A DNA stretch of 63,686 nt, the filler included, from Kipferlia bialata (lineage: Eukaryota): the NCBI GenBank assembly GCA_003568945.1. It is 6 parts of 6 records of this genome, joined end to end, with 100 filler letters (N's around TTAATTAATTAA, not from the genome) between each part and the next. Parts side by side here need not be neighbours in the genome. Positions count along the whole stretch, not along the records: positions 1 to 11,060 come from BDIP01000679.1; positions 11,161 to 26,789 come from BDIP01000680.1; positions 26,890 to 42,515 come from BDIP01000681.1; positions 42,616 to 50,599 come from BDIP01000682.1; 2 more parts are not named here. The stretch is one strand, 5' to 3'. The translations under genes and the position numbers were made by a program. This document shows positions 73 to 47,919 of the stretch, piece by piece. The notes below the pieces were generated by a model. The model ran no database searches. It was not told the origin of the DNA and worked only from the letters and a program-made list of their open reading frames with translations. Within the stretch, counting starts at the first letter, position 1; every line of letters begins with the position of its first letter.

Positions 73-3000
73 CTTCTGGCCACAACTGTCAGGACATAGC
101 CACCGCCATACCTATTGTAAGGAAATGTATGTCTATAAAGCGAGAGCGAGAGAAAGAGAGAGAGAGAAGATGGTCAGGACATAGCCTCCACCGTACCTAA
201 GATAAGTCTTATATATATATTAAGAGAGAGAGAGGCAGAAGAAGAGATGTACGCACTCCTTCTCGCACTTCTGCTTGACTCTGAGCAACAGTACTGCAAT
301 ACTCTATATGACTGTAATACAATATACTGTAATGTACCTGATGCTATTGAGAGAGAGATGTATATAGATATACACACTCACTTCTGCTTGATCCTGAGTG
401 TGGTACCGAATGCTGCAGTGACACCGTTGGCCATGATGCAGATCTGGTCTGGAGGTGAGAAGGGTATATAGAGCAACTATACATTACTAAATACATAATA
501 TCCAATAGTAATACAGTTATGTATTATAGAGAAAGAAATGATTCAGTGACACCTTTGGCCATGATGCAGATCTGGTCTGGAGGGTGAGGTCATTCATTCA
601 ACACAACATACACATACACACACACCCATACAGTCACACTTCTACCTGCCAGGTACTCTGTCTCTGCCATGTCGTGTGTGGTATACATTCTCTCTCTCTC
701 TCTCTTTAAACACACACACATATATATATAATGGTATAAACAATATACATGGGTGTGGGTGTATCTACCTGCCAGGTACTCTGTCTCTGCCATGTCGTGT
801 GTTGTCAGCAGGATGCAGGGGGGGCTGATATACTGGGGTTAGACATAAACTTGTACATATATACACATATATACCGAGAGTGTAAGAGAGAGAGATGCGA
901 GTACCTTTCTCTTGACCACCCCTCCCTCCAGCATAACAGGGACCTTCCTCTTCTGACGGGCAGCCTGGGGGGTTAGGTGTATGTATGCATACACATACAC
1001 ATATACAAAAACACATACAAAACACAGTGTGATATAGACATATACTCTAAACATACAAACCTTCTTGATGGCACTCCAAGCAATGCGCCTGCTCTCGGGG
1101 TCGAGGCCTGGGATGAATGCATAGCATATCACTGCATATACGCTGTTACATATACATATATATATATATATAACTACCCACCTGTTGTAGGCTCGTCCAG
1201 CAGTGAGTAAGTCACATGCACAAACAGAGATATATATACATATTAACAATACATACAAAACAAATATATATATATACATGCCCATACCTGTTGTAGGCTC
1301 GTCCAGCAGTACCAGCTCGGGGTATCCCACACACATATATATATATATATATTCATTATATATAATATATATTCATCCATGAATATACATACAAAGGGCC
1401 ACACTCCTGAGGCCATCCTCAATGAGACGGGGGACCTCGAAGCTAGAGGTTAGACTAGATAGGAAAATATGCATACAAATTACTAATTAGAATTGTATAA
1501 CTATACTCCTCAGGCCATCCTCAATGAGACGGGGGACCTCGAAACTAGGATGTTAGGGGACATATATATATATAGTACTGTCACTATGTATATATTAGTA
1601 ATGTGTAACTATACTCCTAAGGCCATCCTACATCAGACGGGGGACCTCAAAGCTAGGGAAAGAGAAGGGTTATATACATGATACATACATGTAATAGACG
1701 CAATCAACAATGAACTATTATATGTGTACAATACTGACGCCGTCGTCGATCAGACGGGGGACCTCGAAGCTAGAGAGGAGTGGCACACATATGCATATAA
1801 TGTAATATATACACTATATATACTGTATATAATAAAATATTATACACCTATATATACTGTATATACTACTCTATCTCGCGTACCGTGGCACTGAGTGCAT
1901 CCTGCACACCATAGTAATATGTATGATATATTTACATATATATAGGTATACATATACACACATATATACACTATTACACTATCTCGCGTACCGTGGCACT
2001 GAGTGCATCCTGCACACCATAGTCAGGTGCTGTCTGGGTGTCATACCTGGCCAGATGGAGGTGTTGTGCTGGTTGCACACGCCTAGGGTTCAGAATGAGA
2101 GAAGAATACACATATACAATATATAGAGAGAGGGAGAGAGAGAGAGATGGACGTGTTGTGCCGGTTGCACACGCCTAAAGGGTAAATACACCTAGGATAC
2201 ATTGTATATATATGTATATTGACATCAGTATACCTAACAGCCTTCTGATGTGCCCCATGTGATGTCTCATGCTGAGCTGGTCCTTGCACAGCCAGGCCTA
2301 GAGGGTGAGGGAATACTATACACTTGTATCTAGCATTAACCACATGATATCTATGTTTCACAGTTGTATACATCAGACAAACATGCTGCTCCTTGCACAC
2401 CCAATCCTTGACAATATGTGCATAAGTGTGATATGAGAAGTAGACCAATCTCGCATATACCTGCCCAAGCTTAGTACTCTTGGCTGGGTCTGACTGGGTC
2501 ACACTCCTAACGATATAGTATACATAGTATATATTGAATATACATATAAATATATATATACTAATTAGAACGCACCTGACCAAGCTTTGTGCTCTTGGCT
2601 GGGTCACACACCCAATAGTATACTATATATATTGTGTGTATATGTATATATATATAGTATACATGTATATATACATTAGAATTTACCTGACCAAGCTTTG
2701 TGCTCTTGGCTGGGTCACACACCCAATAGTATATTATATATATTGTGTGTATATGTATATATATATAGTATACATGTATATATACATAAGAATATACCTG
2801 GCCAAGCTTTGTGCTCTTGGCTGGGTCTGACTGGGTCACACCCGTGATGCAGTTGATGGTGGTGGACTGGAGGTTAACATCAGCATCTCAGTAGACAGAG
2901 ACACATACACACACACAGAGAGAGAGAGAGAGGAGTGTACCTTGCCGGCTTCGTTGTGTCCCAGCAGACAGTAGAAATTGTAGATATACCCTGTAGCATT

Positions 3001-6000
3001 ATAGTGGGGAATGATAGGTACCTTTCCAGCTCAGTATAGTACAAGTAATACTATATAATACACTAGTATATATTATAGTATATATATTATAGTATATATA
3101 TTATAGTAATGATAGGTACCTTGCCAGCCCCGTTGTGTCCCAGCAGACAGTAGATCTGGCCACTCCTCATCCTCATGGAGACACCCCTCACGGCACGGTG
3201 CAATTGGCCGTTCTTACCCCTAGAGGTTAGACATACACACACACACATATATACATATAGAGAGAGAGAGAGAGAGAGAGACGCACGGCACGGTGCAGCT
3301 GGCCGTTCTTGCCTCTATAGGGTTAGACAAGCACTTTGGATTATACACACAGAGAGACAGAAAGAAAAGGATACATATACATATATATACGAAATATGTA
3401 TATATATATAGTAATGTATCACAGGGCTTGGTGCAGGTGGACGTGTATAGTATGTATATACCTGAATGTCTTCTCCAGGTGGTGTATGACCATCCTGGCA
3501 AAGTGTGTATATACATGGTATTGTATAATAATATAGTATATATATATATACTATATATATATACTCACCTGAATGTCTTCTCCAGGTGATGGATGACCAT
3601 CCTAGCACCTGGCTGCTGGTCTCTCCTGTGGTGAGACACATGTACACACACATATATATAGAGACACAAGTACACACATACACACACACACACTCATGTA
3701 CACACACATATATACACACGTACACACACACACACGTATATATCTATATGCGTAGTCCTGTGGGGTGAGACTCATACAGAGAAGAAAGACATCATGTGGA
3801 TACACAAGATGCATGTAACTCGTATGTCATACTAACATGGGTAATGGCGTTGTCTCCCTCTTGACTTTATATATGTATATACATACACTATCCCTCTATA
3901 TATACACTATATATACCTTAGTACCGAGGTGGTCTCTCTCTTGACATCTGCATCCTGCACACCCAGGGTGTATACTATATGTATATAGAGGGTAAGAAAG
4001 ATCTATATTTATATATATATATATATAGAAAGAGAGAGAGCCCAGGGTGGAGATGGCATCGCAGGCCTCCTAGAGTGTTAGCCGTGATAGATGTACAATA
4101 CTAGTATAGAAAGAGAGAGAGAGACAGAGGGAGAGAGTATATATATACACCCAGGGTGGAGATGGCATCGCAGGCCTCCTGGGGGGTAAGAATGATTATA
4201 TATACTGTATATACTGTATATATATACAATACTGTACAACGCCTTCAATAGCCACACTTAATACATACTTTCTCTATGTATGTACACATAGAACTTTACC
4301 TGGTGAGTCAGGCTCTTCCTCCTGTGCTTCCTGACACTGCCCTTGTTGATCTGATGGATTAAAGGGTGTAGAAGGATATTCAAAGGGTGTAGAAGGTGTA
4401 GGAAAGGGTGTAGGAAAGAGGTGTAAGGGTGTGGTAGACGCACTATATGAGTGTGGTAGAGGAGGAAACGGGAGTTAGTAATATATACCTTGGTGCTCCA
4501 GTAGCTGGGTCTGAGTAGCTGAATGGGTGTCCTACCGACAGAGCCAGCGGTGGTGAGGTACTCGCTCATGACCTGAGGTAAGAAAGAGTGATATGGATAA
4601 ATGTGTCTGAGTATGGGATATATATATATGAAAAGTACATGTATATATAGTATATAGACATACCCAAGAAGCCACTAGATAAATGACATTGGTGACCCAT
4701 CTGCAGGATGGGCCAGATGAGGGGTCCATTTATATATGTACTATATAGTAATATATACATAGCAATATGAATAATATTAATATTAATATTATATATATAT
4801 CTATATCGTACCCAAGACGCCACCAAATAGATGAGGTTTGTGACACCCATCTGCAGGATGGGCCAGATGAGGGGTCCATTCTCATAGGTGCAGTCGGCAA
4901 TGGAGGTATCCATACAGGACATATCGTCCTGGGGTCAGAATTGATATATATATATATACATATACTATCTACATCCATCTATATATATATATATATTAGA
5001 GGAGCAGTCGGCAATGGATGTGTCCATACAGGACATATCGTCCTAAGATGTCAAATAGAATCTTAACACATGCATATCTCAATTATATATAGTTATAATT
5101 GAATGTATCTACATATATATACTATAGGTGCAGTCGGCAATGGAGGTGTCCATACAGGACATGTCGTCCTGGGGTCAGAGTATATATATATGAATATACA
5201 ATATGTGGTCAAAAGATGACTTACCCCGATATGGGCCACCTCTGGGTCTAAACAGCCTCCTGAATGTATAATAATACATGATGATAATGACACATGGTAT
5301 CCAATGAATAATACATATATAAAAATCTCTACATATATTAAAGTGTGAATATATATATGTGTATATGTATATATTAGTGTACATACCCCAATGTATGCCC
5401 CATCTGGGTCATGCTGAATAGAAGTAAAGTAGTATATCTACAATAGTGTGTCTTTATACATCATTCTTACCCCGATATAGGCTCCATCTGGGTCACTGAA
5501 CAGCATGCTGAAGGTATTTGTTTCAAAATACTGTGTAGTAATATATATATATATATATATATATTAATATTATAGTCGTACCCCGATATAGGCACCATCT
5601 GGGTCGCTGAACAGCATGCTGAAGGTATATAACTCACCAGAATACATACAGAGTAGACTATATTAGTAGTATAGTACAGTATAAAGAACCATACCCCAAT
5701 ATATGCCCCGTCTGGGTCGCTGAACAGCATGCCAAAGGAGAAGTCATAGTCAGGGGCAATGAGGATGGACTCATAAGTGACCTCGTCAACGCCTAAAGGT
5801 AAGATGCATTTCACATAAATACAACAAAACTACTCTTACTACTACTAGATCAAATTGTATTGCAACACACATGATATCAACAGACAAGATCTTCCCACCT
5901 ATTGACGGCTTTGCCACCCGGAAACTATAAATAAAAAGATTGAATACAACTCAAACATACATGTATTTATACATACACATATTTCAATACTCACCTGTGG

Positions 6001-6896
6001 ATGGTTTAGCCACCTGGAATATGTTGTTGAAGCACAGGACAAAGTTGACAAAGGGGAACAGAAGCCTGGGGGTAAAAATAGAATATATATGAATACACCA
6101 TATAGACTATAGATACAGTACCATACCTCAGTGCAAATGCCTTTGCCGTTGACAGGAATGTCTCATAGAGCTGATATATACACATCCTTCTCTCTCTCTC
6201 TCTCTACATATATGTGCATATAGTACACTATATATGTACTATATACCTCAATGCAAATGCCTTAGCAGTGGACAGGAATGTCTCATCATAGAGCTGGTTG
6301 TTGGGGTTGACATACATATATATACAAATATATAATATAGTAATATTAATATACAATATAATATTAATATATAATAGAGTACCATACCTTAGTGCGAAGG
6401 CCTTTGCCGTTGACAGGAATGTCTCATCGTACAACTGGTTGGGGTTGACAGTGAGGGAGATGATGGTGTAGACAAAGGCACCGGCCACGAGGATCACTCC
6501 CATCTGTATGTTAGTATAGGGTATATATATATATATGTACAAATATTTAGCATATATAATAGAACTCATTGAAATATCATTTAGAATACAAAGCATGTAC
6601 ACACCATGATTGCGATCTTGTTGTGCATAAAGACAGTACGAATATAGTAGCGTGTAATATACCGGACGCTGTATATCTAATGAAAGAGAATATGCATACC
6701 ATGATTGCAATCTTGTTGAGCATGAAGAGTGATGCCATAATAGTATGGATATATATATATTATACACAAATACAACATCTTAGAGGATACAACACGTGTG
6801 AATACTCACCATGATTGCAATCTTGTTGTGCATGAAGAGTGATGCCATGAACAGACCCAGGGAGGTGGCAGCGGCACCAGCACTAGCAGTTAGAGT

Positions 6897-6947
<51 letters not shown>

Positions 6948-7008
6948 TGCCATGAAGAGACCCAGGGAGGTGGCAGCGGCACCGGCACTTAGGGTTAGAG
7001 TCTATAAG

Positions 7009-7044
<36 letters not shown>

Positions 7045-8499
7045 AGAGTGTTGTACACACTGTGTATTGAGATATACCATTACCTCAGGAACACTATCCA
7101 CATGACCGAGGCGTCCACCCAGGGGAAGATGTTGGTGCCTGGGATGAATATAGTAAATAATATGTATATAAATAATATATATATATAATATACATATATA
7201 TATATATATATATGTAGCAAACACCTGGAAGATGTTGGTGCCTGGGGTAAGAAGATACACGTGAGTATATATAAAGTATATATAGTATATAGGCTAGGCA
7301 TATATCTAGGATAGGTATATATATATAAATGTCAACCCATGGGAAGATGTTGGTGCCTGGGGTGAGGAGACAGAAGAATGAACTGGTTGTAACAAAAAAG
7401 AAACAGTATAGGATCAACTGTCAATTACACTTGATCATACCTACATATTACCAAATACACATGTATTATTCAACATATATGATCATACCTCCAGGCAGCA
7501 GGTACAGGCACCCCATGAATGGCACCAGGGTCACAATGTAGATGAGGTACTGGAACACCCACCTAAGGGGTAAGTGATACATAGAGTATGTATACCATGT
7601 ATGTATAATGTATGAAAATAGTGTATAGATACACAGCATGTATGGGTCACAATGTAGATGAGGTACTGGAACTCCCACCTGAGGGGTAAATATAGTTACA
7701 ATAGGTATGATGATAGAATCCGCACATAAATACAAACACTAAATCGTATGAAAATGTTTCAATGTGGATGAGGAAATAGAATACCCACCTAAGGGGTACA
7801 TGTAGTATATTTACACATTTCTACATAGTATGTACATACATCTCGATTTCATTTCTTGCATATACTGTGTATAAATACATATATGTACACAAATGAATAC
7901 CACTAGTCACACTCACCATGTGAGCCAGTAGAGCCAGTCCGTCGCACCCATCAGTCTGGAGGGTGAATAAAGGGTGTGGGGTGGGAATAAAGGGTGTAGA
8001 GGTACGGGAATGAGTTGATACAAACAAATGCAAGTATAAGCACTGGTACTATATACTATACCTCAGGGCCTGCAGTCTGCCCCCCTCCTTCTCATTAATA
8101 TACACATATCTCACTATATACATGTACATATATTATATCAATACGTACTTCAATAATGTCTACTACTAATCCTAGTATACCTAAGAGCCTGCAGTCTGCC
8201 CCCCTCCTTCTCACAATATACAATACATATATCACTAGATCTATACATAACACATATTGATAGAGTATATCTATGTAATATGTATAGGTAGGGTACCTCA
8301 GCGCCTGCAGTCTTCCCCCCTCCTTCTCACATACCTATACACGCCTCACTATACATATGATATATCCATTGAGTCTCTCGATATAGTCTTGTGCCACTAT
8401 ACCTGAGAGCCTGGAGTCTTCCCCCCTCCTTCTCACTGACCACATCGTTGAGACAGACAAGGAACTGGAGGGCAACTGGGAGTTAGTGTACACACACAC

Positions 8500-8535
<36 letters not shown>

Positions 8536-8630
8536 CGAGCTGACCACATCGTTGAGACAGACCAGGAACTGGAGGGGAACTGGAATTATATATATGGATA
8601 GAGAGAGAGAGAGAAGATTACATTTTGGGC

Positions 8631-8663
<33 letters not shown>

Positions 8664-8928
8664 GTGTATTGTAGTAACACCATCAAAATCTAGCATCTTA
8701 GTGAACATAGCGTATTATCATACCTACTAGCACCATGAATGATGTGGTGTCAAAGGACTCAGGGGCAATATCCACTATAATATTGAAATATGTACATGTA
8801 CATAGTCTATCTACACATGGACTACTAGCATCATCTAGCTATACAATAGTACTGTACCTACTAGCACCATGAATGAGGTTGTGTCGAAGGACTCGGGGGC
8901 AATGACATCCACGGAGTAGTAGCCTGGG

Positions 8929-8977
<49 letters not shown>

Positions 8978-9655
8978 TGGCAATGACTTCCATGCATACT
9001 GTAAGTGGGTATGCCCTGAATGTATTGTTCTCATATGCAGTATCGTAATAGCACAATATGAAGATATGTAGGTATTTACAACATATGTAATATCTACCAA
9101 TAGGAGAGAGAGACAGAGAGAGAAGATTATATACTGTACCTGGGTATGCCCTGAATGTTGGCTTGTACACGACATCTGCCTTGACAGACAGCACAGCACG
9201 CTCGACAAGGGCCTGTTAGGGTAAGTATTAGCTAATACATATATATATATATATATATAGTAATGCAATATGTACTTGTATATATACATATATAATGTCT
9301 GCATTGACAGACAGCACGGCACGCTCAACAAGGGCCTAGGGGGTAAGGATAGACACTCATATATATAATGATAACGTATTATGTATATTAATATACACAA
9401 TATCTGTCTGATGACTTCATTGGTATACTACTGATAGCACTAACAATAATGTACATACATACCTTTAGAGCCACTGGTCCAGCTGTCCATTGACAAAGGC
9501 ATAGAGTAGTAGTATACCATTGGTACCATATATTACATATGTACTATATAGGATATACTCATCATACCTGCAAGGCCACAGGACCAGCTGACTACACCAC
9601 CCCTCCGTTGACAAAGGAGTTGGCAAGGTCATCCATGTAGAGCTAGAGATAAGGG

Positions 9656-9705
<50 letters not shown>

Positions 9706-9710
9706 AAGGG

Positions 9711-9760
<50 letters not shown>

Positions 9761-9803
9761 CAAGGCCAAACATGGCAGCAATGAATGCAGCCATTAAGGG
9801 TGT

Positions 9804-9834
<31 letters not shown>

Positions 9835-9876
9835 CAAGGCCAAACATGGCAGCAATACAAACTGGTATAAGGGTGT

Positions 9877-9907
<31 letters not shown>

Positions 9908-10929
9908 ACCAAACATGGCAGCAATGGCAGCAATGCATCCTGAATACTAAGGGGGTAGAGAGAGAGAGAGAGAGAGAGAAACAGAGAGATTGAGAGAGAA
10001 AGAGAGTACCAATGCCAGGGCATGGCAGAAGTCCAACTTGATCAGTAACGGTAAAGAAAGGGAGTGAGAGACCTACCCCAACTGCCATAGACAAGTATCC
10101 CCGACAATCTCGCGCCAAATACAACTAATTGAACACCAATGTGTCAAACCCTGCTATATCTAGATATGAATGTGCATATATACCTGCGCCCACTCCCATG
10201 ACAAAGAACCAAGCCTGATGGAATCATATGTCCAAATACATAATGAGTGCTGACATTGTACAGTGATATATACCCTACCTGCTCCCACTCCCATGACAAA
10301 GAACCTGGACACGTCCCATGTAGTCTGGAGCTGGATGTCCCTGACACCACCAAGGGTGACCTAGGGTGAGAGACATATATACCATAGTATACGTGTATCC
10401 GATACTATATGCCCTACACATTCACTATACAAACCTTAGCCCCGTGTCCCTGCAGCATGTCGTGTCTGACCCACCTGTCAACAACCACTATCGTATATAT
10501 ATACCATGAATACTATACAGTATAGAGTACCTTAGCCCCGTGTCCCTGTAACCAGTCGTGTCTGACCCATCTGGCCAGGACAAAGGCAGAGCCCATGCCA
10601 ACGGCTGATATTAGTACATATATAGTAGAATAAAATACAATCATAATATATATATAAATATATTCATAATACATTCATATATATATAGAGAGAGACCCAT
10701 CCGGCCAAAACAAAACAGCAGCCAGTACTCAAAGGAACAGGGATGAATATGGCATATTCATCCCATTCACATAGAGTATGTATATATATGAGTATATAAA
10801 TGAATTTCAGTCACCCATCATTGCTCAGAACATTTGAATATATATAATAGACACAGAAGACATACCCATCTTGGCCCAGAACAGCAGCCAGTACTCAAAG
10901 GAACAGGGGCCCACAAGGTCACCATCCTC
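73..10929 (-). CDS. ABCA-subfamily ABC transporter (TMD + NBD), many short exons; incomplete at the window start and at the gap
   Basis: Manual splicing gives VVSEKEGGRLQALR (ABCA EKE motif, ~8403-8475), several TM exons, Walker A LLGHNGAGK|ST (3120-3150, 2860), Q-loop LGVCNQHN (~2080), Walker B/D-loop LVLLDEPTTG|LDPESRR (1288-1328, 1061-1108), H-loop ILLTTHDMAETEYLA|DQICIMANG (768-833, 382-450) and KYGGGYVL (73-112). The LSGG signature exon was not found. Confidence 0.92.
1397..1773 (-). repeat. Acceptor-side exon-echo array (FEVPRLIEDGLRS): true exon plus 3 upstream copies
   Basis: AGACGGGGGACCTC recurs at ~1426, 1527, 1635 and 1752, each with its own CTAG acceptor. Confidence 0.9.
2460..2868 (-). 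repeat. Donor-side exon-echo array (DPAKSTKLGQ|gt): true exon plus 3 downstream copies
   Basis: CCAAGCTT.GT.CTCTTGGCTGGGTC at ~2466, 2581, 2691 and 2802; period ~110 bp. Confidence 0.9.
5222..5793 (-). repeat. Donor-side exon-echo array (MLFSDPDGAYIG|gt): true exon plus 4 copies
   Basis: Copies at ~5692 (true), 5579, 5469, 5385 and 5222, progressively more degenerate. Confidence 0.9.
8062..8585 (-). repeat. Exon-echo array around VVSEKEGGRLQALR: 3 donor copies downstream, 1 acceptor copy upstream
   Basis: CCCCCTCCTTCTCA at ~8081, 8199, 8316 and 8422; acceptor copy at 8540-8585. Confidence 0.9.
9661..9980. repeat. Dense (GA)n microsatellite cluster interleaved with CCAAACATGGCAGCAAT copies; representative of the (TA)n/(GA)n/(CA)n tracts in echo-rich introns
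   Basis: Five (GA)n runs, each preceded by TAAGGG(T/G)G(C/T)AG. Confidence 0.9.
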
Positions 10930-11008: not shown

Positions 11009-11044
<36 letters not shown>

Positions 11045-11160: not shown

Positions 11161-11209
<49 letters not shown>

Positions 11210-11235
11210 GGGGGAGAGAGAGCATTGATACTCAC

Positions 11236-26732: not shown

Positions 26733-26747
26733 CTGGGGTGAGGGCAT

Positions 26748-26784
<37 letters not shown>

Positions 26785-26939: not shown

Positions 26940-27332
26940 GGTTGGTGACATTGTGGCTGTGAGACAAGATGAGGAGGTGCCAGCAGACCTGGTCCTTCTG
27001 TCAACAACAAATGCAGGTACATGTTATATATATGTGTATATATATCTATCTGTATCTATTTATATATCTATATATATGTGTGTGAGGAGGAGCCAGCTGA
27101 CCTGGTGCTCCTATCAACCACAAATGCGGGTACAATCTAGTTAAGTATATATGTATATATGTATATATAGCATTATATGTTCATACTCTTACTCCAGGTG
27201 GCATTGCCTATGCCCAGACTGCCTATATGTATGTATTTACCCATATATATATATATATATATGTGTGTGTATACATACACTAATTCCAGGTGGCATTGCC
27301 TATGCCCAGACTGCCTCTATGTATGTATATAC

Positions 27333-27369
<37 letters not shown>

Positions 27370-31462: not shown

Positions 31463-31501
<39 letters not shown>

Positions 31502-34500: not shown

Positions 34501-37407
34501 GGGTCTGCGCACCCTAGTCTTTGCCTCTGCCTGTCCCTCCCCTGAGGCACTCAGGAGACTCAAGGCCGAGGAGTACAGAGACATCGATGACAAGAGGTAT
34601 GGTTGTATAGTGAATAGTAGATAGTGTATATAGTGTATACTGTAAATATTGTTTATACTATTCTAAGACGGAGGAGTACAGAGACATCGATGATAAGAGG
34701 TATGATACCTCTTCTATGGCCAGCAAGCCAATCGCGTAGTTTCTTAATTGACTTCCAGGCTTGTCAAGGCTGCCGCTGCCGTTGAGAAGGGCCTCACCTT
34801 CCTGGGTGTCACTGCTGTGGAGGACAAGCTGCAGGAGGGGGTGCCTGATACACTGGATGCACTGAGACAGGCCGGGGTCAGGTACCTTTGCATTCTACGC
34901 GATATGCATACGGGAATAGTTTATACTGGTGTCTTAGCAGTCTGCACGGAGTTAGTATTCTGTACGATGTGTATCTGATCTTCAGGGTATGGGTTCTGAC
35001 CGGTGACAAGCTGGAGACTGCAGTCAACATTGCATACAGTAGCAGTCTGTTCCCTATGGACGCCACACTGCTAAGGTATAGTGTATATATGTATTCATTC
35101 TATGTATACGGATATATAGTATCAACTCCTATGTAATGGTGTGTATTCATTGTGTCTCTGTAACCATGTACTCTCTTGGATATGTGTGTTGTCATACTGA
35201 CCCCTCTAGGCTCGAGATTGAGCATGCCCTTGCTGAGATTAGTGTGTATTGTACATTTACACATTATCTTCCATATATACATATATCAACTGATTCTAGG
35301 CTTGAGGGTGAGCATGTCCGTGCTGAGATGAGCCGGAGGGGCTGGTCTCTCAAGCAGGCCACCCTAGCGGCACTCAACAGACTGGTCAAGAGGCAGGAGA
35401 AGACTAGGGGGCAGGTATTTTATATATAGTTACCATTATACATATGGAGTATATATATGTCTTTATATATAGTTTATGTACTGAACAGACTGGTCAAGAG
35501 GCAGGAGAAGACTAGGAGGCAGGTGTGTATTATATGTATATACAATATACCTGACATTATGTATTTGGAGTCTATGCTATTTTTAGTATATCCCACCCTC
35601 ACCCCCAGGTGTGCCTGGTCATGGATGGCAACGGCCTAGAGTGTGTGCATCTCGCAAAGGTATAAGAACATATGCTCATATGCACACATATACACAAGTG
35701 TAGAGTTGTTCTTTACTATATATTCGTACCCCTTCTTCCTACATTCCCAGGAGGACAGGCGCCTCATTGATAAGCATGTAAATAGACCTTTATATATTTA
35801 TAGAATATAATAGTGTGTTCAGATATTTTAGATATGGTCATCTCACCCTCAGGAGGACAGACTCCTCATTTGTGTATTTATAGTACATATGATATATATA
35901 TATGTACATTGTATTATATATGTAGTGTCTCACCCCCAGGAGGACAGGCGCCTCATTGAGCTCTGCTCTCTCTGCTCCAGCTGTCTGTTCTGCAGGGTGA
36001 CTCCCAAGCAGAAGGCTCAGGTACAAATATATGTATATACATACACATACATATATATACATACACATACATATACATATATATATAGCAATCGTATATT
36101 CTATATCTCAGAGTGACTCCCAAGCAGAAGGCTCAGGTTCGTTGCAGTCGTTAGTGGTGGGATTTGAACCCACGAACACTTATTTTATGTGTCCTCCCAT
36201 TCCACTCTACTCCTAACCCATAGGTCACGTCACAGGTGCAGAAGGTGCTGAAGAAGTCCTGTCTGGCAGTGGGAGACGGGGCCAATGACGTGGCTATGCT
36301 GCTGGAGGTGGGTGGAGATAGTATTACGTAGAGTGTTATACTCTCATACCCATTGATATAAATGTATATATATTTGTGTGTATAAGTATTTACTAGTATG
36401 CCCGCTAACCCCTAGGCCGATGTGGGTGTGGGCATAGCAGGCAACGAGGGCATACATGTATATCTATATACTATATATGTCTATATCTATCTATCTATAT
36501 ATATATATATATAATATCTTCTAACGCTAGGCCGATGTGGGTGTGGGCATCGCAGGCAATGAGGGCATGCAGGCCAGTCGGTGCAGTGACGTGTCAATCT
36601 CACAGTTCAGACACCTCAGGTACACACAACACTCGCAATACTCACAATTACTCTATCCTCACCTTGCCTTACCATACAGGCGCCTTATGTTTGTCCACGG
36701 TCGCTACAACAGCGTCCGTTCCACCACCCTGATCATGTACTCCATCTACAAGAGCATCCTGCTTGTGCTGCCCTCACTGCTCTTCTCATTCGTCAACTTC
36801 TTCAGCACGAGGTGGGCATACATTGTATTTTACATATCTAATATATAAATATATATGTGCATATGTATATATGAGTAGGTCCCGTCCCTGCTCTTCTCAT
36901 TCATCAACTACTTCAGCACGAGGTGGGTCGGTGTATTTGTTGTATATATGTACATATATATTATACTTGCACCACCTTCTATACACTCACCCCCAGCATG
37001 GCTGTGGATGACTATGTCATGTGCTGCAGATGTGCTATTTATCTACTGTAGTGTATACTCTACCATCTTAGTATACTATGTACACTCTATATACACTCAC
37101 ATCCCAGCATGGTTGTGGATGACTATGTCATGTTCTGCTACAACATTGTCCTCACCCTGCTCCCCGTCTTCGTATACTCCCTGTTTGAGAAGGACCTCCC
37201 CTCCCGCGAGATATCCAATGAGAGCGGGGCATACACTGCATTCATCAGAAAGGGTGCTCTCAACGATACACGGTACGACATGTATAGCTCTCTCTCTCTC
37301 TCGCTTTTCCCTGCATCACTATGTATAAGGACTAGATGATTACTTAACTCTCTCTATCTCCCTTATGCCGCCATATTCCAGTGTGTTTGTGTGGCTTATG
37401 GATACCC

Positions 37408-37442
<35 letters not shown>

Positions 37443-38540
37443 CCTCTCCCCCCTCTACCCCCTCATTCCAGTGTGTTTGTGTGGCTGATGGACACCATAG
37501 TACATGGTGGTGTCATCTACTTCTGCGGCATCGCCTTCTATGGAAGGTCATTCGACGCCATGAGTGTGTTCTTCAGCACAACGGTGTTCCTGGTGGCCCT
37601 GTTCAGGTACTTACTCTTACACTATATACTATTGCATCTCACACCTTGCTCCTCCTTGTCACACCAGGCTCTGGCTGTGCGTGCAGTCCTTCAACCTGTA
37701 CTTTGTGCTGACTAATGCACTATCCATCGTGTGCTATGTTGTGCTCCTTGTGGTCCTGGAGGTGTTTGGACTGTCTCCCGGGGCACAGGGGGCTATTATG
37801 CAGGTACAGTATAGTATAATATATACATATATATATATATTATATGGGATTGATTGTATCTGTGTTTGGCCTGTCCCCTGGGGCACAGGGGGCCATCATG
37901 CAGGTGAATCAGTGCATCAGAAAACATGGCGTGTTTGTCCCTACACTATATATCTACCGGTCCCTCACCCCCCAGCTTGGCACTGACTGGCGCTTCTACG
38001 TGTGCGTGTTCCTGACCGTGACACCCTGCATAGCATTCTCAGCGGTGGTCAACCACATCAGGTATAAATATATACATTGATAGTGTATATGGTATAGTAG
38101 TAATAATGCATTCATATATACACACACTATATATACATACATCAGAAAGAGATATATATATACATATATATCTTACTGAGACACCCTGCATAGCATTCTC
38201 AGCGGTGGTCAACCACATTAGGTATTTACACTATTAATTCTCTATTTATAATACTATATATATTCTGAATGTTGTTATCTCTATGTGTCTCTATTATCTC
38301 TCTGACTCCAGGACCCACTTCACCCCCTCCACCGTCAATGTCATGATATATATGAATTGTTTCTCTCTCTCTATATATATACATACATATATATATATAC
38401 ATATATATATATTTATATCTTTATATATACATTTGTTGACATCTGACTCCAGGACCCACTTCACCCCCTCGACTGTCAATGTGATTGCATCCAGGTCACA
38501 GACCAGAGGGTGTGTGTCCAACGATAGATGGCTGGCATAG
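26940..38540 (+). CDS. P4-type ATPase (phospholipid flippase), many exons, 5' end in the gap
   Basis: VGDIV...VPADLVLLS, QTANLDGETNLK, NVLLRG, YAGHETK, IPMSLFVTLE, phosphorylation site SDKTGTLTEN (~31790), SPDEVALV, DRKRMTVV, KGAD, GLRTL, AVEDKLQEGVP, WVLTGDKLETA, CRVTPKQKA, GDGANDVAML, GIAGNEGMQA, RRLMFVHG; TAG at 38540. Confidence 0.97.
27190..27640 (+). repeat. Acceptor-side exon-echo array (GIAYAQTA): 4 copies plus true exon
   Basis: CAGGTGGCATTGCCTATGC at ~27195, 27288, 27380, 27481 and 27601. Confidence 0.95.
28625..29075 (+). repeat. Acceptor-side exon-echo array (GMSSMAHRQT): 4 copies plus true exon
   Basis: AGGCATGTC...CCCACAGACAG at ~28628, 28714, 28830, 28935 and 29044. Confidence 0.93.
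29865..30435 (+). repeat. Acceptor-side exon-echo array (ALSISNVLLRG): 5 copies plus true exon
   Basis: TGTCCATCTC.AAT at ~29874, 29981, 30056, 30165, 30288 and 30394. Confidence 0.93.
31515..31812 (+). repeat. Acceptor-side exon-echo array before the DKTGT exon: 3 copies plus true exon
   Basis: AGGCCACATCCAG at ~31519, 31608, 31689 and 31770; copies lengthen toward the true exon. Confidence 0.93.
36149..36217 (-). pseudogene. tRNA-like fragment (intact T-arm and 3' acceptor strand) antisense within a P4-ATPase intron
   Basis: Minus strand reads CGTGGGTTCAAATCCCACCACTAAC: a perfect 5-bp T-stem with TTCAAAT loop, Leu/Ser-like 3' end. GTTAG at 36217 can pair with CTAAC. D and anticodon arms are not canonical. 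Confidence 0.45.
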
Positions 38541-38730: not shown

Positions 38731-38764
<34 letters not shown>

Positions 38765-39040
38765 ATGTCTCACACCTCTGTGTGGGGCACCTCCACAACA
38801 GGTAGCACTGCCTTGCTATCAATCACTCTCTTCTTCTCCTCTCTCTCATAGGTGTCAAGGGTCTCAAGGGCGTCCTAAGAGTAAGGAGACTATATAGAGG
38901 TGTACAATACATCACTGTTTTCCAGAGAGCCTCTAGGGTCGGAATACTACAGTCAACGCTGACAGCTAGATCTGCTATAGTACTACACATCACAACTAAT
39001 GTTTTAGAGACATCGACTATAGTTGTATACATGTAGGAGT

Positions 39041-40622
39041 TACCTTTGAGTACAGCACCCTGCGGCATACCACCAGACACAGGAAGAGGCCAGAGATGAT
39101 ACATCCTACCATGCCAATGGCAGCCAGGGGGACAGGGATCAGGAAAGCCTAACGATCAGATATATATATATAGAGAGAGAGAGTACATATACACGTATAT
39201 AGAGACTCATGCCAATGGCAGCCAGAGACACAGGCACCGGGAAAGCCAAGAGTAAGAAAGAGAGTGGGACAGAATAGTATTACCAGTAGACATGATATAC
39301 ATAATACACCCACCTCATCTAGGTGGTCCTCGGGTGTGAGGCCATGATATGCGAGGTAGTCACTGCCAAACAGAACAACCTGTCAGTGAGGATATACATA
39401 TACGTCAAAATGAAATGGAACAGGAAGAGAGGGCAAGTTACATGTACCTGTGCACAAGACAGACCGGCCAGAACTAGGATGACACCTGGTGTGAGGCAGC
39501 ATTAGAAGAGTAGTAGTGTAGACAAGCATACATATACTATTACACAATATTCTCACCCATGCTGAGCACCACCGTGTGATAGGCCAAGTATATATTACAC
39601 ATATAGAACTCACATAACCAAAGGAAGGACTAGAGTGACACATATTACAAATATATATGTATGTATACAATATACATACCCATGCTGAGTACCACCGTGT
39701 GGTAGGCCATGCCGAGGGGTCTGTACACAGTCTCCCTCTCTGCCTCTCTCTCCCCTGCACCCTCCCCTGCACCCTCAGCCGGGTGGGTCTCAGCAACATC
39801 AGCCACTGCATCTCTCTCTCCCACAGTCTCTCCCTTGCCCTCCACTAGGGTGATGGCCTGGCCCTGGGGTCAGTCACGGTATAACTCTATACTGATGCTG
39901 TATGTACATATATATATGATACACCATAAAGTGAGCCTGACCTTGTATATGTACCATGTGACCCACTCTAACATGATGTTGAATGTCAATCACAGAAGAG
40001 TCACTACATATTTACGTGTATATATATACACACACACGCATATATATACATCCATGACTATAATGATTCTTGCCTTGTATATGTACCATGTGAGCCACTC
40101 TGCCAAGATGTATTAGTGATTATATGAATACATATCCATGAACACATATATATATCTATATTGAAGTTGTATAAATGCAGAGGATGTTCTACCTTGTATA
40201 TGTACCATGTGACCCATATATATATCCATGAATATAATAATCCTTACCTTGTAAATGTACCATGTGACCCACTCTGCCATGATGAAGTTGGACACGGTGG
40301 CCACCCAGGTGTCTGGATATGAGGGGGGGGGAGTACCAATGCCAACATATGATGGACTAGGTGAGTAGGAAGCTATATATACATGTGTATATACAAAGAG
40401 AATTTACCCCCCAATATCTATACAGGTATATACAGAGTAAATACTAATTCTAATATCTATGTAGGTACCTGTTGGCCAGTGTGCTGCTATCAGCCACCTG
40501 CCCACCATCATGAACAGAGTCAGTGCAGAGACACAGGCATAGGCAAGGGCAACACTCCACCTGGAGAATGGAGTCACTGAGTGCCTGAGATTAGCAATAC
40601 ACGTGTATATATTTATATACAC

Positions 40623-40659
<37 letters not shown>

Positions 40660-40722
40660 CAGGCATAGGCAAGGGTGATACTCCACCTGGGGAATGGAGT
40701 CACTGAGTGCCTGAGATTAGGA

Positions 40723-40775
<53 letters not shown>

Positions 40776-42253
40776 CAGGCATAGGCAAGGGTAACACTCC
40801 ACCTGGGGAAGGGAGTCACTGAGTGCCTGAGATTAGGGGTAGATGAATATATGGACACATTGTATGATACATATATGATACATAGAGACACATATATGTG
40901 CATATACCTCATGATGGCTGGTACCACGTAGAGACACGCTATGGCCGAGGTGTGTCCAGAGACAAAGCCGCCATGGTCAAAGGCACCCGCATAGGAGTAG
41001 GTGCCTAAGGCATTAGATCAGTCTACCAAACACAAGTATCCTAAACTCTTGTTACATAGACATGTATATGTGGATGTGGGTGTTACATGGTCAAAGGCAC
41101 CCGCATAGGAGTAGGTGCCTAAATAGTCAGCAAATGACTTGTCACACACCATCCAAAGTCTATATATATATAATAATTAATATATATAATAACACCATGG
41201 TCAAAGGCTCCGGCATAGGAGTAGGTACCTAAATAGTTAGCAAATGACTTCCAATCCAAAGTCTATATATATAATAATAATTAATATATATAATAACACC
41301 ATGGTCAAAGGCACCCGCATAGGAGTAGGTGCCTAAGGGGTGAGTAGAGGACTTGTCACACACCATCCAAAGTCTATATATATATTAATATATATACAAA
41401 TGTATATATACAATCCAGAGTGTACTCACCGTGTAGGAATGCCTCTGTGAATGTGAAGTCATCCATGTTGCGGGGTCTGGCCCTGGCAAAGAACATCTGA
41501 CGTCAGAGGTACCATATGGTAGTATACGACATATATTGAATCATCTCCATTCCTTGATATTAACATGCGCTATACAATGAGGCAGTATAGCTTTGTCCCT
41601 CTGCCCAGCCCGAGGAGAGAAAACACATACAATGAACTACACACCATTCTACCATACACTCAATGTATACTTTCATATCCTATAGATACTCTATGGCCAA
41701 TACCTTTGTCCCCCTGCCCAGTCCTAGGAGGGAGAATGCAAGGACAAGAGTCAGGACACCAAACCTAGGGGTGAGTATCAATAGACATATGTAATAGAGA
41801 ATATTTACTCCGTATACATACATACACTCATATAACTAAGGTGAGGATACTAATGTAATATGGACAATGCACACGACTATTTGTAAACATACCTCCTAGT
41901 GTTGACCTTTGATACCACCCCTCCCATCTTGGGAAAGAGGGACAGGAACTGGGGTAAAAGTATGTATAGTTAGTACAAAGAGGATACACATAATATATGG
42001 ATATTTGAATATACCTTGTACCCAAGCAGGTAACAGAGTATATATATGCGTATTAAACGATGTGTACTACGGTGACAAAGACCATACACATATATACCTT
42101 CGCCTTGACGGCAGGCACTGACCCCAGCAGATAGAGAGCCGAGATGGGGATGAGGGAGCCATAGGCAGCAATCTGGTGTAATTGAGAGAGAGAGAGAGAG
42201 ATGGGGGGATGAGGGAGCCATATGCAGCGATCTGGGATGCGACGGAGAGAGCA

Positions 42254-42288
<35 letters not shown>

Positions 42289-42477
42289 GGACCCATAGGA
42301 ACCATTATACTTGTATACTTACCAGCAGAGGCTCAGCAGTGAAGTCCCCGACCCAGGTGCCAAAGCCATCCTTCTCATAGATGGCTGGAGAGTGAGGACA
42401 CATATATTAATATACATATATTAATATACATATATTTATAGAGAGAGAGAGTGGCTGTCCTTCTCATAGAAGGCTGG
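39041..42477 (-). CDS. PAP2-family integral membrane (lipid phosphate) phosphatase; 3' end approximate
   Basis: All three PAP2 motifs appear after splicing: C1 K|MFFARARP (41704/41497), C2 FVSGHTS (~40960) and C3 GRWLIAAHWPT|D (40470-40505). Confidence 0.88.
39941..41340 (-). repeat. Three exon-echo arrays in the PAP2 gene
   Basis: Donor copies of EWVTWYIYK|gt (39941, 40072, 40191; true 40247). Acceptor copies of RHSVTPF.RWS (40658, 40774; true 40468-40585). Acceptor copies of GTYSYAGAFDH (41087, 41196, 41299; true 40973). Confidence 0.92.
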
Positions 42478-42739
42478 GGGGGGGGGGGGGGGGAAAAAAA
42501 TAAAAAAAAAAAAACNNNNNNNNNNNNNNNNNNNNNNNNNNNNNNNNNNNNNNNNNNNNTTAATTAATTAANNNNNNNNNNNNNNNNNNNNNNNNNNNNN
42601 NNNNNNNNNNNNNNNAAAGACTAGAGGGAGGGGGGGGGAGGGGGGGGGGGGGGGGGGGGGGGGGGGTACACACACTGATTGTTATACTTCCAATGCAGCT
42701 AGAGAGCTCGTGGCCCTGTATATAGAAACCTCCCTATAC

Positions 42740-43231: not shown

Positions 43232-45842
43232 ATGGAGCCTCTCTGCTCGTTCGAGAGGCTCAACCCTCTGCTGCAGGTAATCGGGACAGTCCGACTCTAT
43301 CTCTACTGCATATTGGGTATATATATATATATATCATCTCTCTCCTCCATGGTATTCGTTGCGGCACGCCCATATGACCCTATTGTGTGATACTTAGCTG
43401 TATAGTTGTCTACATCTCTAGATACTTCCTCTGGGCGTTGGTATGTATCAATGATCTAATTTGGTACCGGTACCAACATATCCTATTTGTAGTCTGCTGC
43501 CAATTGTCCCTACATATCGCTGAAGCCCTTGTAATTGCACACTTATACTCCAATCCCACATATTTACTGTGTTATTTGCCCATAACGATCTCATTCGCAT
43601 AAATGGATGACATAATTGGGATCACTCTTACCCCCTTCTCTTATACCAGGGTAGCTACGTCCTTCCACTGGGCGAAGAGAAGGTTCAGAACTGGAAGACA
43701 GGTTGGTAGCAAATATATATTGAGTGTATTGTGTGAATACAGTTACTCACTATATATGTGACCTGTTTTGTGTTACTGTAGTACCCTGACCCCCTAGGTG
43801 TGCCCAGAGTGGCCTATGTACATGTGCACTCCCTGTGCTTCCAGAGTGGCGCGTCTCTATTTGGCAAGGGGCTCTCAGTGGGGGCCAAGATTGTAGACAG
43901 GTATACTCTCTCTCTCTTTCTGGACCTCAGTTTAGGTATACTTCACTGGATTTATGCAGCAATGTCACCCTGCTCCTCTCTTATACTCAGGTCACGCACT
44001 GTGCTCTCCTCTCCCTTTTGTGTGGGTTCTTCCCTCCCTGCCTCTCCCCCTCCTCTCTCCCAGGGGCCATTCCCATCAGGTATGACCTGGATGAGTATGT
44101 GATACCGTGCTGTATATATATCCCGTACAGTCAGTCTCGCCAGTCTCTCACTCTATTTAGCTATATATGGTAAATATGGTGATTGTGGCAGTGTCTGTTG
44201 CTGTACTTTGACTGACGTCCCAGCATACTCCCTCAGCCACTCCCAGGCATCGGTCCTGCCACTGCTCCCAGTGCAGGTACAGTTCCATGTATATGTTGCA
44301 TGTAGTTACATCCTCTATTTCTGCGTTTTAGAAGATAGTGGTACCCCCCCCCCCTCACCCCTCAGGCCCCTGTGTCCCTTCTGTTTGCCTTGACATACAA
44401 GCACTCACTGAGGGAGACAGCCACACCCACGCTCAGGTACCACAGTGAATACACATACTCTCTCTCTCTCTTATTGTTTCTCTCTCTCTGTGTGTGTGTG
44501 TGTATATACACTATACCTCTGACCCCAGGATCTCCATCTGCACTGTGGAGACGCATTATCTCTCTCTCTCTCTCTCTCTCTGTATTTATACACGCATTAG
44601 TATATACACTATACCTCTGACCCCAGGATCTCCATCTGCACTGTGAAGACACATTCTCTCTCTCTCTGTATATATATACGTATTAGTATATACTATACCT
44701 CTGACCCCAGGATCTCCATCTGCACTGTGAAGAAGACGAAGGTGGCAGCGGCATCAAACAGAGAGGAGAGGGAGAGAGAGAAGGAGAGAGAGAAGGAGAG
44801 GGGAAGGGAGAGAGAGACGGCAGATGATGCCCCAGACCATGTAGGGGAGAGAGAGACAGGGGCTGTGGACATTAAGGTGGGTTGTGTCCGTACCAGTCTT
44901 TCCTTCTCCGTCTCTATCCCTCTCTGACTGTCAGGGCTGCAAGAAGGCTGAGGTGCTGACGTGCAACATAGACCTGTCCTCTCTGATGAAGGGAGGCGCA
45001 CTCACCCACACCACACTCACACTCACACCGGTGGGGGGGAGCAAGGTGAGGCTCTCTCTCATACTAAAATGCCCTATGCTCTACTACTCTGTCTCCACCC
45101 CTCTTACCCCAGGGTAAGTCCCGCCTGACTGACTCTGACCCCTCGCCCTCCCTCTCCATCGGAGTGTCCCTGGCATCTCTGGCCATAGACACCCCGCTCA
45201 CAAAGGTGTGATAAACAGGGAGGCATATACGGTGGTGTTGCCTCTGTTAGTATTTACGTTGTTATTACTTCTCTCTGTACTCACCCCCAGGTCGAGTCCA
45301 TCCTGGCCCCTCAGTCCCCCTCCCCCACCGACCCCCTTCTCCCCATGCTACCCCCCTTGCATGCCCTGCTGGCAGACATATCCCCAAAGGTAGGGGGTGT
45401 ACTCTATATATATATATATATCTACCCTGTTCACCACACATCCTCACACCAGGAGACCTCCAGGTTATGCAGGTACCACCAGTACCTGGCACCATTGCTG
45501 CAGGAGGTGGCAGAGAGGGAGAGAGAGAGAGAGAGAGAGAAGAGACGCAGGGGCAAGGCCGCCAAGAGTGTGTCGGATGCCGATGCCTCCCTCGCCCTCT
45601 CCCTCTCCCACCTCTCCCTCAGTGCCTCGGACCACAAGCAGCCATTGACAGAGCTAGTCCCTCTGCCAGAACTACTGGAGAGAGAGAAGTCTGGCCACAG
45701 GGAGAGGGAGAGAGACAGAGACAGAGACAGAGACAGGGAGGGAGGCCTGTCAGAGACTGAGTCTGACGAGGGGTCCCTCTCCATGTCTTTCTGGCCCCCA
45801 TCCCAGACACACACAGACTCTGCCTACTTTGACTTCGCTTGA
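43232..45842 (+). CDS. PACS-like (furin-binding region / NT-C2-type) protein
   Basis: Spliced VPRVAYVHVHSL...LSVGAKIVDR|SRTVLSSPF...VSLLFALTYKHSLRE...LRISI...NIDLSSLMK parallels recalled PACS1 VPRLFSLTLKKL...VVIAVKLQGSKRILRSNE...LTFSLQYPHFLKR...INMAEVMQ. Confidence 0.6.
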
Positions 45843-46250: not shown

Positions 46251-47919
46251 ATGGGCGACAAGAGGATTGCATTCCAGACGCATGGCTTTGCCGTTGTGGT
46301 GTGCCGCCATCCTGTGTCAGGTATGCTCATTAAAAGTGACCCAGTCTGAGAATTACTAGTATATATATAGAATTACTAGTATACTAATATATACAATACA
46401 TCTTTTGAAGCTATACTTAGGATCCACACAACTCCATTCCTCATCATACACAAAGAATGTATATACGAAAGAAGGAATGGTCCTAATCCCATAGGCAAGT
46501 TCCTCGCTGTGTCTGAGTCCAGAGGCCGCGGCTGGTGGCTGCCTGCCGGCCATGTCGACTACGGCCAGACCTTTGTGGAGGCTGCACTGAGAGAGACACA
46601 GGAGGAGGCAGGTATCAATACCATATACATACATATATATACTATATATATGCATAAGACTGAATCAGTAGTGTAAGTATAAGTTATACTGATACTGGTA
46701 TTGCACTCAGGGAGACACAGGAGGAGGGAGGTATCATATACATACATATATACTACTGAATCAGTTGTATCAGTATATGTAATACTGATTCTGGTACTGT
46801 CCTGAGAGAGACAGGAGGAAACAGGTATGAGTGGCATATGCATATATACAAAGTATATGTGTATCCAGTAACTTCCGACACTGATACAGCCCTAAGAGAG
46901 ATACGGGAGGAGAGAGGAATCAGTGTCATGCATATATATATATATATATATATATATACGTTCTCTCTCTATATAAATATACACACTACTCATACTGATG
47001 GCAGGTGTTGATGTGACACTCAAGGGTGTACTGGCCGTGGAGCACTCCCTGACATCCCCCGAGACAGCCAGGATGAGGGTCATATTCTACGCGGAACCCA
47101 CCGACATCCACCAGGCACCTAAGAGCAAGCCAGACAGGGAGTCTGAGGGGGCAGAGTGGCTCTCCATCCCAGAGATTGAGGCTAAGAGGGGGCTGCCACT
47201 GCCACATGGCCTCAGGGGTGAGGAGCTCTTGCGGTGGGGTGTGTATGTTGCTGGAGGCGGTGTGATAGGGCCCCTGACAGTGTCTAGGAGTGGCAGGTAC
47301 GAGGGCATATTCAGGCTGAATGATCCAGGCCCGGTGTACGTAGGGACTGCCGCAGAGGCTGTTGAGAGAGGCCTCTCGTCCCCTAGCCACATGCAGCAGA
47401 GTGGCATAGATACAGCCAATCTAGACAGACATGAGGGTGCCAAGCAGTGGACCCCTCTCCACAGAGCGGTGGCAGATGGGGCGGAAGAGCGGGTTCGGTC
47501 CCTGCTGCTGGCTGGTGCCAAGCCTGATGGGAGGACACACAAGGTCAGGGTCATTGATACAGCTGAGATCTCATATATATAGAAGTACATACTCATATAT
47601 ATATCAGTAGTATACGCTCAGGATGTATAGTTCACAAACCATCCTTACCCAGGGAAGAACTGCACTTCACTTCGCGGTGAGCCGCAACAACGACGTGATA
47701 GTGAGACTCCTCCTATTGGCAGGTGCTACATATATTTACGAATATTTACCCCAATGCAACAGTATCAGTATTTGTTTGTATATTGTATGTATAGTATGAT
47801 ACTGACACTCAGGTGCTGACCCTTGTGCAGCCGATTCAGAGGGTAGAACACCGGCGGATATCGCAGACAGTGTCGGCGATGACAAGGTGCTGAGGCTCAT
47901 CCAGCTATCGAGGGAATAG
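46251..47919 (+). CDS. Nudix hydrolase (NUDT18-like) fused to ankyrin repeats
   Basis: Nudix box WWLPAGHVDYGQTFVEAALRETQEEA|GV, then MRVIFYAEP and PKSKPDRESEGAEW. Ankyrin repeats WTPLHRAV, GRTALHFAV and GRTPADIA. TAG at 47917-47919. Confidence 0.9.

Follow-up and report, generated by a model that had tools for sequence, protein, structure and literature searches.

Introns and partial exon copies in the Kipferlia bialata window

In a 63,686-nt stretch of Kipferlia bialata DNA (assembly GCA_003568945.1; the window hereafter), many introns contain partial copies of the neighbouring exon, which raises the question of why these copies differ from their exons mainly at silent sites. We term the copies echoes. 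Each unit combined the end of an exon with one splice site and some 75 nt of filler rich in microsatellites, and lay on the intron side of its own boundary only. An earlier note on this DNA had described such units in five genes (ABCA, P4-ATPase, PAP2, PACS-like and Nudix) and had proposed that they are, or recently were, under coding constraint. The codon counts presented below supported recent constraint. The explanation that we favour, with a probability of about 0.52, is that until recently the echoes served as exon ends in other alleles and that exchange between homologues brought them into the introns, the population being highly polymorphic.

Echoes of exon ends in five genes

The echoes were found by codon-blind nucleotide local alignment of 88 exons with their flanking introns, at a score of at least 30. 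These exons and 80 modelled introns belong to the five genes listed here, from which all echo counts were drawn; three ABCA exons (two split, one with a TAG) with their introns, and a CT-rich stretch at about 10270-9650, were left out of every count. Divergence from the exon is given as differences per silent site (pS) and per replacement site (pN).

383..10929, minus strand: ABCA-family ABC transporter gene, 25 exons counted, 35 echoes within 537-10742; pS 0.295, pN 0.020.
26941..38528, plus strand: P4-type ATPase (flippase) gene, 36 exons, 37 echoes within 27083-38344; pS 0.185, pN 0.030.
39040..42384, minus strand: PAP2-like phosphatase gene, 12 exons, 331-codon open frame, 12 echoes within 39208-42231.
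43650-45840, plus strand: gene putatively named PACS-like by the earlier note, two echoes.
46251-47915: Nudix hydrolase with C-terminal ankyrin repeats fused to it (Pfam; the ankyrin matches lie under the curated cut-off), three echoes.
11061-11160, 26790-26889, 42516-42615, 50600-50699 and 60063-60162: 100-base pads with a stop-codon linker, joining six scaffold pieces that are unrelated across the pads and are not true neighbours.

The score threshold was reached in 57 of 160 cognate exon-intron pairs and in 0.5% of 6880 non-cognate pairs. Among the 91 matches, 45 were exon starts, all upstream, 38 were exon ends, all downstream, and 8 were internal; the opposite polarity was never observed, and none of the 91 copied a whole exon. 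Two spurious matches (a CT-tract match and an overlapping match with three gaps) were removed, leaving 89 echoes in 46 of the 80 introns. As many as 82 extended to the exon end, 44 on the acceptor side and 38 on the donor side, so that both boundary types were duplicated. Echo length was 15-76 nt (median 33), and the spacing between splice sites had a median of 110 nt, with 70 of 82 values at 81-135 nt. Where an intron carried both kinds, the donor echoes preceded the acceptor echoes (10 of 10). Dividing intron length by the number of echoes plus one gave 75-140 in all 46 echo-bearing introns, the median echo-free intron being 96 nt. An acceptor lay near 5 of the 38 donor-side echoes, against a background of 17%. 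These results bore out the description of tandem copies of exon ends with their splice sites in the introns of five genes.

A repeat scan independent of the gene models found 50, 53 and 4 repeat pairs in three microsatellite-rich scaffold pieces (11%, 9% and 4% microsatellite) and none in 11161-26789, 50700-60062 and 60163-63686, which contain about 1% microsatellite and intron-rich genes. The two pieces with about 50 repeat pairs each are those of the ABCA and P4-ATPase genes. The echo-rich and echo-free pieces represent two kinds of genome region. The architecture is patchy over the window. Recursive re-splicing through an exon-end AG was also considered and rejected, as AG ends were rarer, not commoner, in exons with a donor-side echo (20 of 28, versus 48 of 52 others; Fisher P 0.02, not corrected for the several tests made).

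Differences between echoes and exons are mostly silent

The main codon count, with the filler-side ends trimmed, covered 877 codons. Differences affected 134 of 599 silent sites and 59 of 2032 replacement sites (pS 0.224, pN 0.029), corresponding to a ratio of replacement to silent divergence (dN/dS) of 0.11; the ratio was 0.10-0.13 across four trimmings and 0.13 untrimmed. At codon positions 1, 2 and 3 there were 36, 24 and 133 differences, and the two wrong frames gave a ratio of 2.7. When each distinct variant was counted once, 116 were silent and 57 were replacements, that is, 67% silent versus the 23-34% expected from neutral decay. A stricter null, in which only the exon is protected, predicted 37-50% silent (transition bias 1 to 1000) and was rejected (P<=5e-6); fourfold sites showed 25 transitions and 40 transversions, and the low end of this expectation therefore applies. 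With one echo per array (52 arrays), 86 silent differences stood against 41 replacements, a result stable at score thresholds of 24-50. The silent changes were near balance in direction (46 toward AT, 38 toward GC). Echoes compared with each other differed at 47 of 221 silent and 22 of 754 replacement sites (40 non-independent pairs with unrelated flanks), and 12 of these 22 replacement differences traced to one decayed echo. Some arrays contained four or five silent haplotypes.

Decay was clearly present as well, since differences private to one echo comprised 27 silent and 20 replacing changes. Replacement changes were no more conservative than random, and 10 of 13 gaps broke the frame, the other three keeping it. 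Collectively, the codon counts supported the view that the echoes were recently under coding constraint, which holds even when only the exon is assumed to be protected. The examples in the earlier note were not cherry-picked within the window, as a search blind to codons gave a ratio over 89 echoes far from 1. Its statement that echoes stay peptide-identical was too strong: most differences were silent, but 57 distinct replacements and the frame-breaking gaps contradicted it.

Splice signals beside unrelated flanks

Identity to the true boundary was about 0.9 in the exon part and 0.95 at GT/AG, and it was 0.3-0.45 past donor +5 or acceptor -11. In likeness to the true flank, 64 of 82 echo flanks did not exceed the 95th percentile for unrelated introns, with values of 0.57-0.58 against 0.54-0.55 for such introns, and unrelated flanks occurred even where the exon part was identical. 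The 33 donor-side echoes with unrelated flanks had a pS of 0.31 and a pN of 0.018, and flank identity was not correlated with pS or pN (rho -0.08 and 0.14; n=72). The splice signals themselves were of good quality: 27 acceptors unlike their own true site scored 4.24, compared with 4.51 for true sites and -7.5 for random AG, and 19 donors unlike their own true site scored 1.47, compared with 1.44 for true sites and -0.51 for random GT. The dinucleotide GT was retained in 35 of 38 echoes and AG in 42 of 44, as decay at the pN rate predicts. Homology of whole units, covering both exon and intron parts, was found in a minority only (e.g., 44529/44627 and 2716/2605); seven echo pairs with related flanks differed at 0 of 33 silent and 1 of 111 replacement sites. 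Because an unrelated flank goes together with 98% of replacement sites kept and a good but different branch-acceptor motif, such echoes do not look like simple old duplicates. Judging from its sequence, each unit looks like a boundary that worked until recently in another context.

In the modelled introns a branch-point-like A stood 7-9 nt from the intron end, with a C-rich run and YAG behind it, an arrangement like the fused branch and acceptor of Giardia introns. One flank of an echo donor, 36137-36180, resembled the reverse complement of a tRNA T-arm motif; ARAGORN found no tRNA there.

DNA and RNA contigs over part of the P4-ATPase gene

Read contigs were compared with the window over 28340-31090 (2.75 kb of the P4-ATPase gene, part of it without DNA cover). 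Contigs of run X1 crossed exon, filler and echo unbroken, with no differing letters (28358-28642; 29046-29811), and X1 depth was 425-437 over the echo arrays and 433 over unique DNA. Run X1 may be the source sample of the window, in which case the agreement checks the assembly and not the sample. None of the runs listed as containing this stretch is recorded as RNA, and run X2 was assigned to RNA on the strength of the GT..AG splicing of its contig; this 4556-nt contig joined eight true P4-ATPase exons, which it thereby confirmed, contained no other letters and skipped 12 of 12 echoes. Such contigs drop rare variants, so minor isoforms and heterozygosity are invisible in them. The earlier suggestion that echoes are used in mRNA or in programmed DNA deletion was not upheld here, as the echoes were skipped in RNA and present in DNA at full depth; within these 2.75 kb, the same depth values also speak against elimination with echoes as pointers.

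The mRNA took the first donor and the last acceptor. At 28411-29046 and 29734-30389, where five or six consensus-like acceptors follow one another at intervals of about 100 nt, the RNA contig used the last one. Such a choice suggests exon definition, in a species whose introns are very short and whose spliceosome is reduced.

Individual arrays and split exons

The following arrays and split exons illustrate the layout.

6247..6312, minus strand: 3' echo, with a GT donor, of ABCA exon 6503-6388; changes at 8 codons, all silent, and one 3-nt insertion.
8062..8335, minus strand: three 3' echoes of ABCA exon 8475-8403, flanks unrelated.
5225..5625, minus strand: four 3' echoes of ABCA exon 5792-5695; the donor flank differs in each, and the farthest (5256) is decaying.
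28630..28964, plus strand: four 5' echoes (acceptor and exon start) of exon 29046-29111; RNA joint 28410>29045 skips them.
29869..30333, plus strand: five 5' echoes (exon start) of exon 30389-30471; the acceptor flank differs in each, and all are missing from the spliced RNA contig.
33897..33936, plus strand: 3' echo of exon 33725-33836; codon differences over the alignment: six silent, two replacement.
37862..37903, plus strand: 3' echo of exon 37668-37803; silent differences at 5 of 14 codons, no others, and a donor flank unrelated to the true one.
44529..44649, plus strand: two young 5' echoes of exon 44711-44876 (PACS-like); whole units homologous, resembling classical mirages.
46702..46912, plus strand: three 3' echoes of Nudix exon 46495-46611.
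3917..4178, minus strand: split ABCA exon; 5' pieces 4178-4147 and 4069-4041, 3' piece 3970-3917, overlap 12 nt.
1182..1765, minus strand: split ABCA exon; four 5' and two 3' pieces, overlap 3 nt, the inner two lying 57 nt of TA-rich filler apart.

Over the 10 codons left after trimming, ABCA exon 8475-8403 and its three echoes showed no replacement change and made up four different silent haplotypes. The three comparisons quoted in the earlier note were all reproduced. In the echo at 6312-6247, 8 of the 16 quoted codons differed, all silently, and the insertion lay further out; the silent count at 37862-37903 was reproduced. For SPDEVALVR (33897-33936), 5 of the 8 whole codons of SPDEVALV differed silently and the sixth difference was the R codon at the donor, read from the sequence, but two replacements lay just outside the quoted peptide.

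No intact copy of either split ABCA exon was present in the window. The exon at 1182..1765 presumably encodes the Walker B region. The fillers of the split exons are TA-rich, and one of them contains a branch-site-like motif that is cut off just before its AG. A null allele, a misassembly or non-canonical rejoining may account for these split exons.

Origin of the echoes

Under the favoured reading of the echoes as captured alleles, repair copying from the homologue would begin in an exon, pass the splice site and rejoin at TA/CT filler; tandem duplication straddling the boundary could serve instead. Only products with a single splice site would be tolerated, and their survival, with the exon read as the shortest acceptor-donor span, would give the echo polarity. 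Mispairing of exon and echo between homologues would then add, replace and remove units, and each unit would consequently have served as an exon boundary in one haplotype or another in the recent past. The silent differences would be allelic differences accrued under purifying selection, and the few replacement changes, frameshifts and lost GT or AG (about 3% per site) would reflect neutral decay since capture; non-conservative replacements and three in-frame gaps among 13 are as expected from such decay. One-sided invasion with illegitimate rejoining is familiar from plant and mammalian repair work. According to the accessible text of PMC8516963, metamonads lack Ku, DNA-PKcs and canonical non-homologous end joining (NHEJ) and rely on homologous recombination, and the accessible part of PMC12895298 gives protists the largest median effective size among eukaryotes. 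Both points make allele capture plausible without showing it.

Exchange was simulated with a toy Wright-Fisher model of two units (exon end and echo), haploid, with N of 200-300, whole-tract exchange and exon-only selection; there were 10 replicates per setting in the main set and 2 in a noisier earlier set. Exchange between chromosomes (theta 0.2, exchange 40x mutation) yielded a pS of 0.18-0.21 and a pN of 0.03, a ratio of 0.15. Exchange within the same chromosome gave pN/pS of 0.56-0.65 in 4 of 4 settings whatever the diversity, even at theta 0.5, and the noisier set followed the same trend (0.38-0.81 in 12 of 12 settings). Exon-to-echo transfer alone sufficed (0.15), and adding echo-to-exon transfer left the ratio at 0.15. 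Only inter-chromosome exchange matched the data in simulation, and the echoes are therefore read as alleles shuffled between homologues. Of the three mechanisms proposed in the earlier note, capture of diverged alleles fitted best, and recombination templates held up only as part of inter-chromosome exchange.

Several results weigh against allele capture. Neither run's contigs, which drop variants and leave part of the stretch without DNA cover, contained other letters that would mark a second allele over 28340-31090. P0001 and P0004, the matches used for the gene models, each formed a cluster of one, with no close shorter relative in the best 120 matches (a list that short fragments could fail to reach), and a metagenome scan for relatives found none among 29 pattern matches. 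The model requires a silent diversity of about 0.15-0.2, which is assumed for K. bialata, and some echoes reach a pS of 0.5-0.7. The flanks have diverged further than the silent sites, and for this introns would have to turn over quickly or the flank lineages would have to be old. The close spacing of about 110 nt and the three echo-free pieces are unaccounted for, and the support from simulation comes from a two-unit haploid toy with whole-tract exchange.

Among the alternatives, it is unlikely that present selection keeps the echoes coding-clean because single-strand annealing or conversion frequently turns an echo into the working exon and a damaged echo would thus be harmful. Promotion would maintain the consensus-like splice signals seen beside unrelated flanks, and direct repeats 110 nt apart over microsatellite DNA are what recombination would be expected to act on where NHEJ is missing (PMC8516963); yet promotion within one chromosome left the simulated ratio far too high, adding it to exchange between chromosomes brought no decrease, and frameshifts and lost splice dinucleotides occurred at neutral-looking rates. 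The simulation and this decay indicate that promotion works only as one face of allele capture. Scars of hybridisation or polyploidy, in which diverged homeologues were resolved by one-sided recombination without high diversity today, seem rather unlikely. They would explain a pS of up to 0.5-0.7 without replacement change, the unalignable flanks and a second allele not seen now, but arrays with four or five silent haplotypes and flanks, and a pS spread without breaks between 0 and 0.7, would require more than one donor or recurrent events, and the low pN implies recent capture.

We consider it improbable that the echoes are used, through RNA or DNA rejoining at direct repeats or stage-specific splicing, with protein-level selection on them. 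Two ABCA exons, one with the putative Walker B region, are present in the window only as overlapping 5' and 3' pieces, and they leave functional use a small probability; the K. bialata spliceosome is reduced, with snRNA (small nuclear RNA) candidates not found (PMC6679479). Against use, the sole RNA contig contained true exons only, echo DNA was as deep as unique DNA, 3' echoes lacked their own acceptor, no whole exon was copied and most gaps broke the frame; the ABCA copy in the window also has an in-frame TAG and may be a null allele or misassembled. That Kipferlia rebuilds the split ABCA exons by non-GT-AG rejoining at short direct repeats, in RNA or in the DNA of some cells or stages, with echoes sometimes translated, is equally doubtful. 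Dead tandem duplicates, whose neutral decay is augmented by silent changes in the protected exon, are very improbable: they account for polarity and fit the young homogeneous units with related flanks, but they predict fewer silent differences than the 67% observed and need exon silent sites to evolve about 6x faster than the adjacent intron, although the intron flanks are the more diverged. Least probable of all is an assembly artefact in which diverged haplotypes were stitched in tandem. The assembly is a draft built from short reads, the organism is likely diploid, the spacing is near a read length, and the read check spans 2.75 kb with a run that may be the window's own sample; separately assembled contigs nevertheless crossed exon, intron and echo unbroken at even depth, and the echoes are partial and strictly polar.

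Gene models

The 40-codon exon 34760-34879 was 100% identical to P0001, a K. bialata protein with the annotation type IV P-type ATPase, and P0001 was placed letter for letter on 36 GT-AG exons at 26941-38537. An ABCA exon matched P0004 (K. bialata), which was placed at 10602-381 (minus strand) with some exons skipped; the ABCA model is P0004 plus three added exons, and 25 exons enter the counts. ABCA exon 9642-9568 (minus strand) has good splice sites with an in-frame TAG inside and is skipped by the public gene model. The PAP2-like, PACS-like and Nudix-ankyrin genes were hand-modelled to open frames, and a 20-nt PAP2-like microexon candidate, 40356-40337, was dropped as it would break the frame. 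Pfam supported the ATPase (PhoLip_ATPase_C), ABC (ABC_tran), Nudix and ankyrin labels, so three of the five gene names were confirmed; single exons of the PAP2-like (two exons) and PACS-like genes gave no Pfam match, and these two names were left unconfirmed. The name PAP2-like is taken from sequence motifs. The published K. bialata genome is a short-read draft, likely diploid, with 124,912 introns, and the accessible portion of that account has no mention of exon copies (PMC5874029).

Significance

If allele capture is true, a single genome preserves a sample of the alleles of its species and, with it, evidence of hidden diversity and of sex. A silent diversity near 0.2 and inter-chromosome exchange would then be measurable from a single assembly, and sex and population size in free-living fornicates would be directly testable. 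With as many as five good donors or six good acceptors at 110-nt intervals to choose from, the spliceosome takes the first donor and the last acceptor, in an organism whose introns are about 95 nt long and whose spliceosome is reduced. The echoes also offer a route for intron growth and sequence turnover in a lineage without canonical end joining, and they mislead gene prediction in the K. bialata genome.

Comparison with known systems

Mutually exclusive or cassette exon duplicates were rejected as a parallel, given the lack of whole-exon copies and the scarcity of nearby acceptors. Cassettes of the vls type are diversifying and differ from the expressed copy by many replacements, which is not the case in Kipferlia with its dN/dS of 0.11. 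Silent cassettes and pseudogene donors (Borrelia vls, major histocompatibility complex, chicken immunoglobulin) are, like the echoes, unexpressed, partial, coding-like and exchange-capable, but in the available text of PMC3924837 they serve antigen or receptor diversification, whereas the Kipferlia copies are intronic pieces of 15-76 nt in housekeeping genes with silent differences. The intron-gain model of Rogers, as reported in the accessible part of PMC3087553, likewise duplicates exon sequence beside splice signals; in contrast, the RNA contig spliced none of the echoes, and they give rise to no new intron.

The 37-bp variable number tandem repeat (VNTR) in intron 7 of human F7, which contains silent 5' pseudo-sites, also repeats donors downstream of the true donor, with only the first used. 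On the accessible description (PMC1557585), it is one locus of near-identical units with donors only, whereas Kipferlia also has acceptor arrays, the last being used, and its units are diverged at silent sites. The layout also resembled that of the mirages of amphioxus, described for the globins BflGb6 and BflGb9, Adh3, troponin C and PGBD5 in the available parts of PMC3087553 and PMC3902484: tandem copies of exon-intron boundaries, 5' and 3', with AG/GT kept and the main mRNA unaffected. According to the same parts, mirages are minisatellites at few loci, 81-100% alike over whole units and under concerted evolution. In Kipferlia, by contrast, 46 of 80 introns are involved, the intronic part of most units is unrelated (64 of 82 flanks within the unrelated-intron range) and the exonic dN/dS is 0.11; the word "synonymous" occurs 0 times in the available text of PMC3087553.

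In the open-access literature searched, we found no account of such copies in Kipferlia, of silent-biased mirages, of independent flanks or of a like density. The earlier note's view that the architecture was undescribed thus applies to the silent-biased form, while boundary copies as such were known (PMC3087553, PMC1557585). In summary, the layout is that of mirages and of the F7 VNTR, and what appears to be new, as judged from this sequence, is silent-biased copies with independent flanks at high density.

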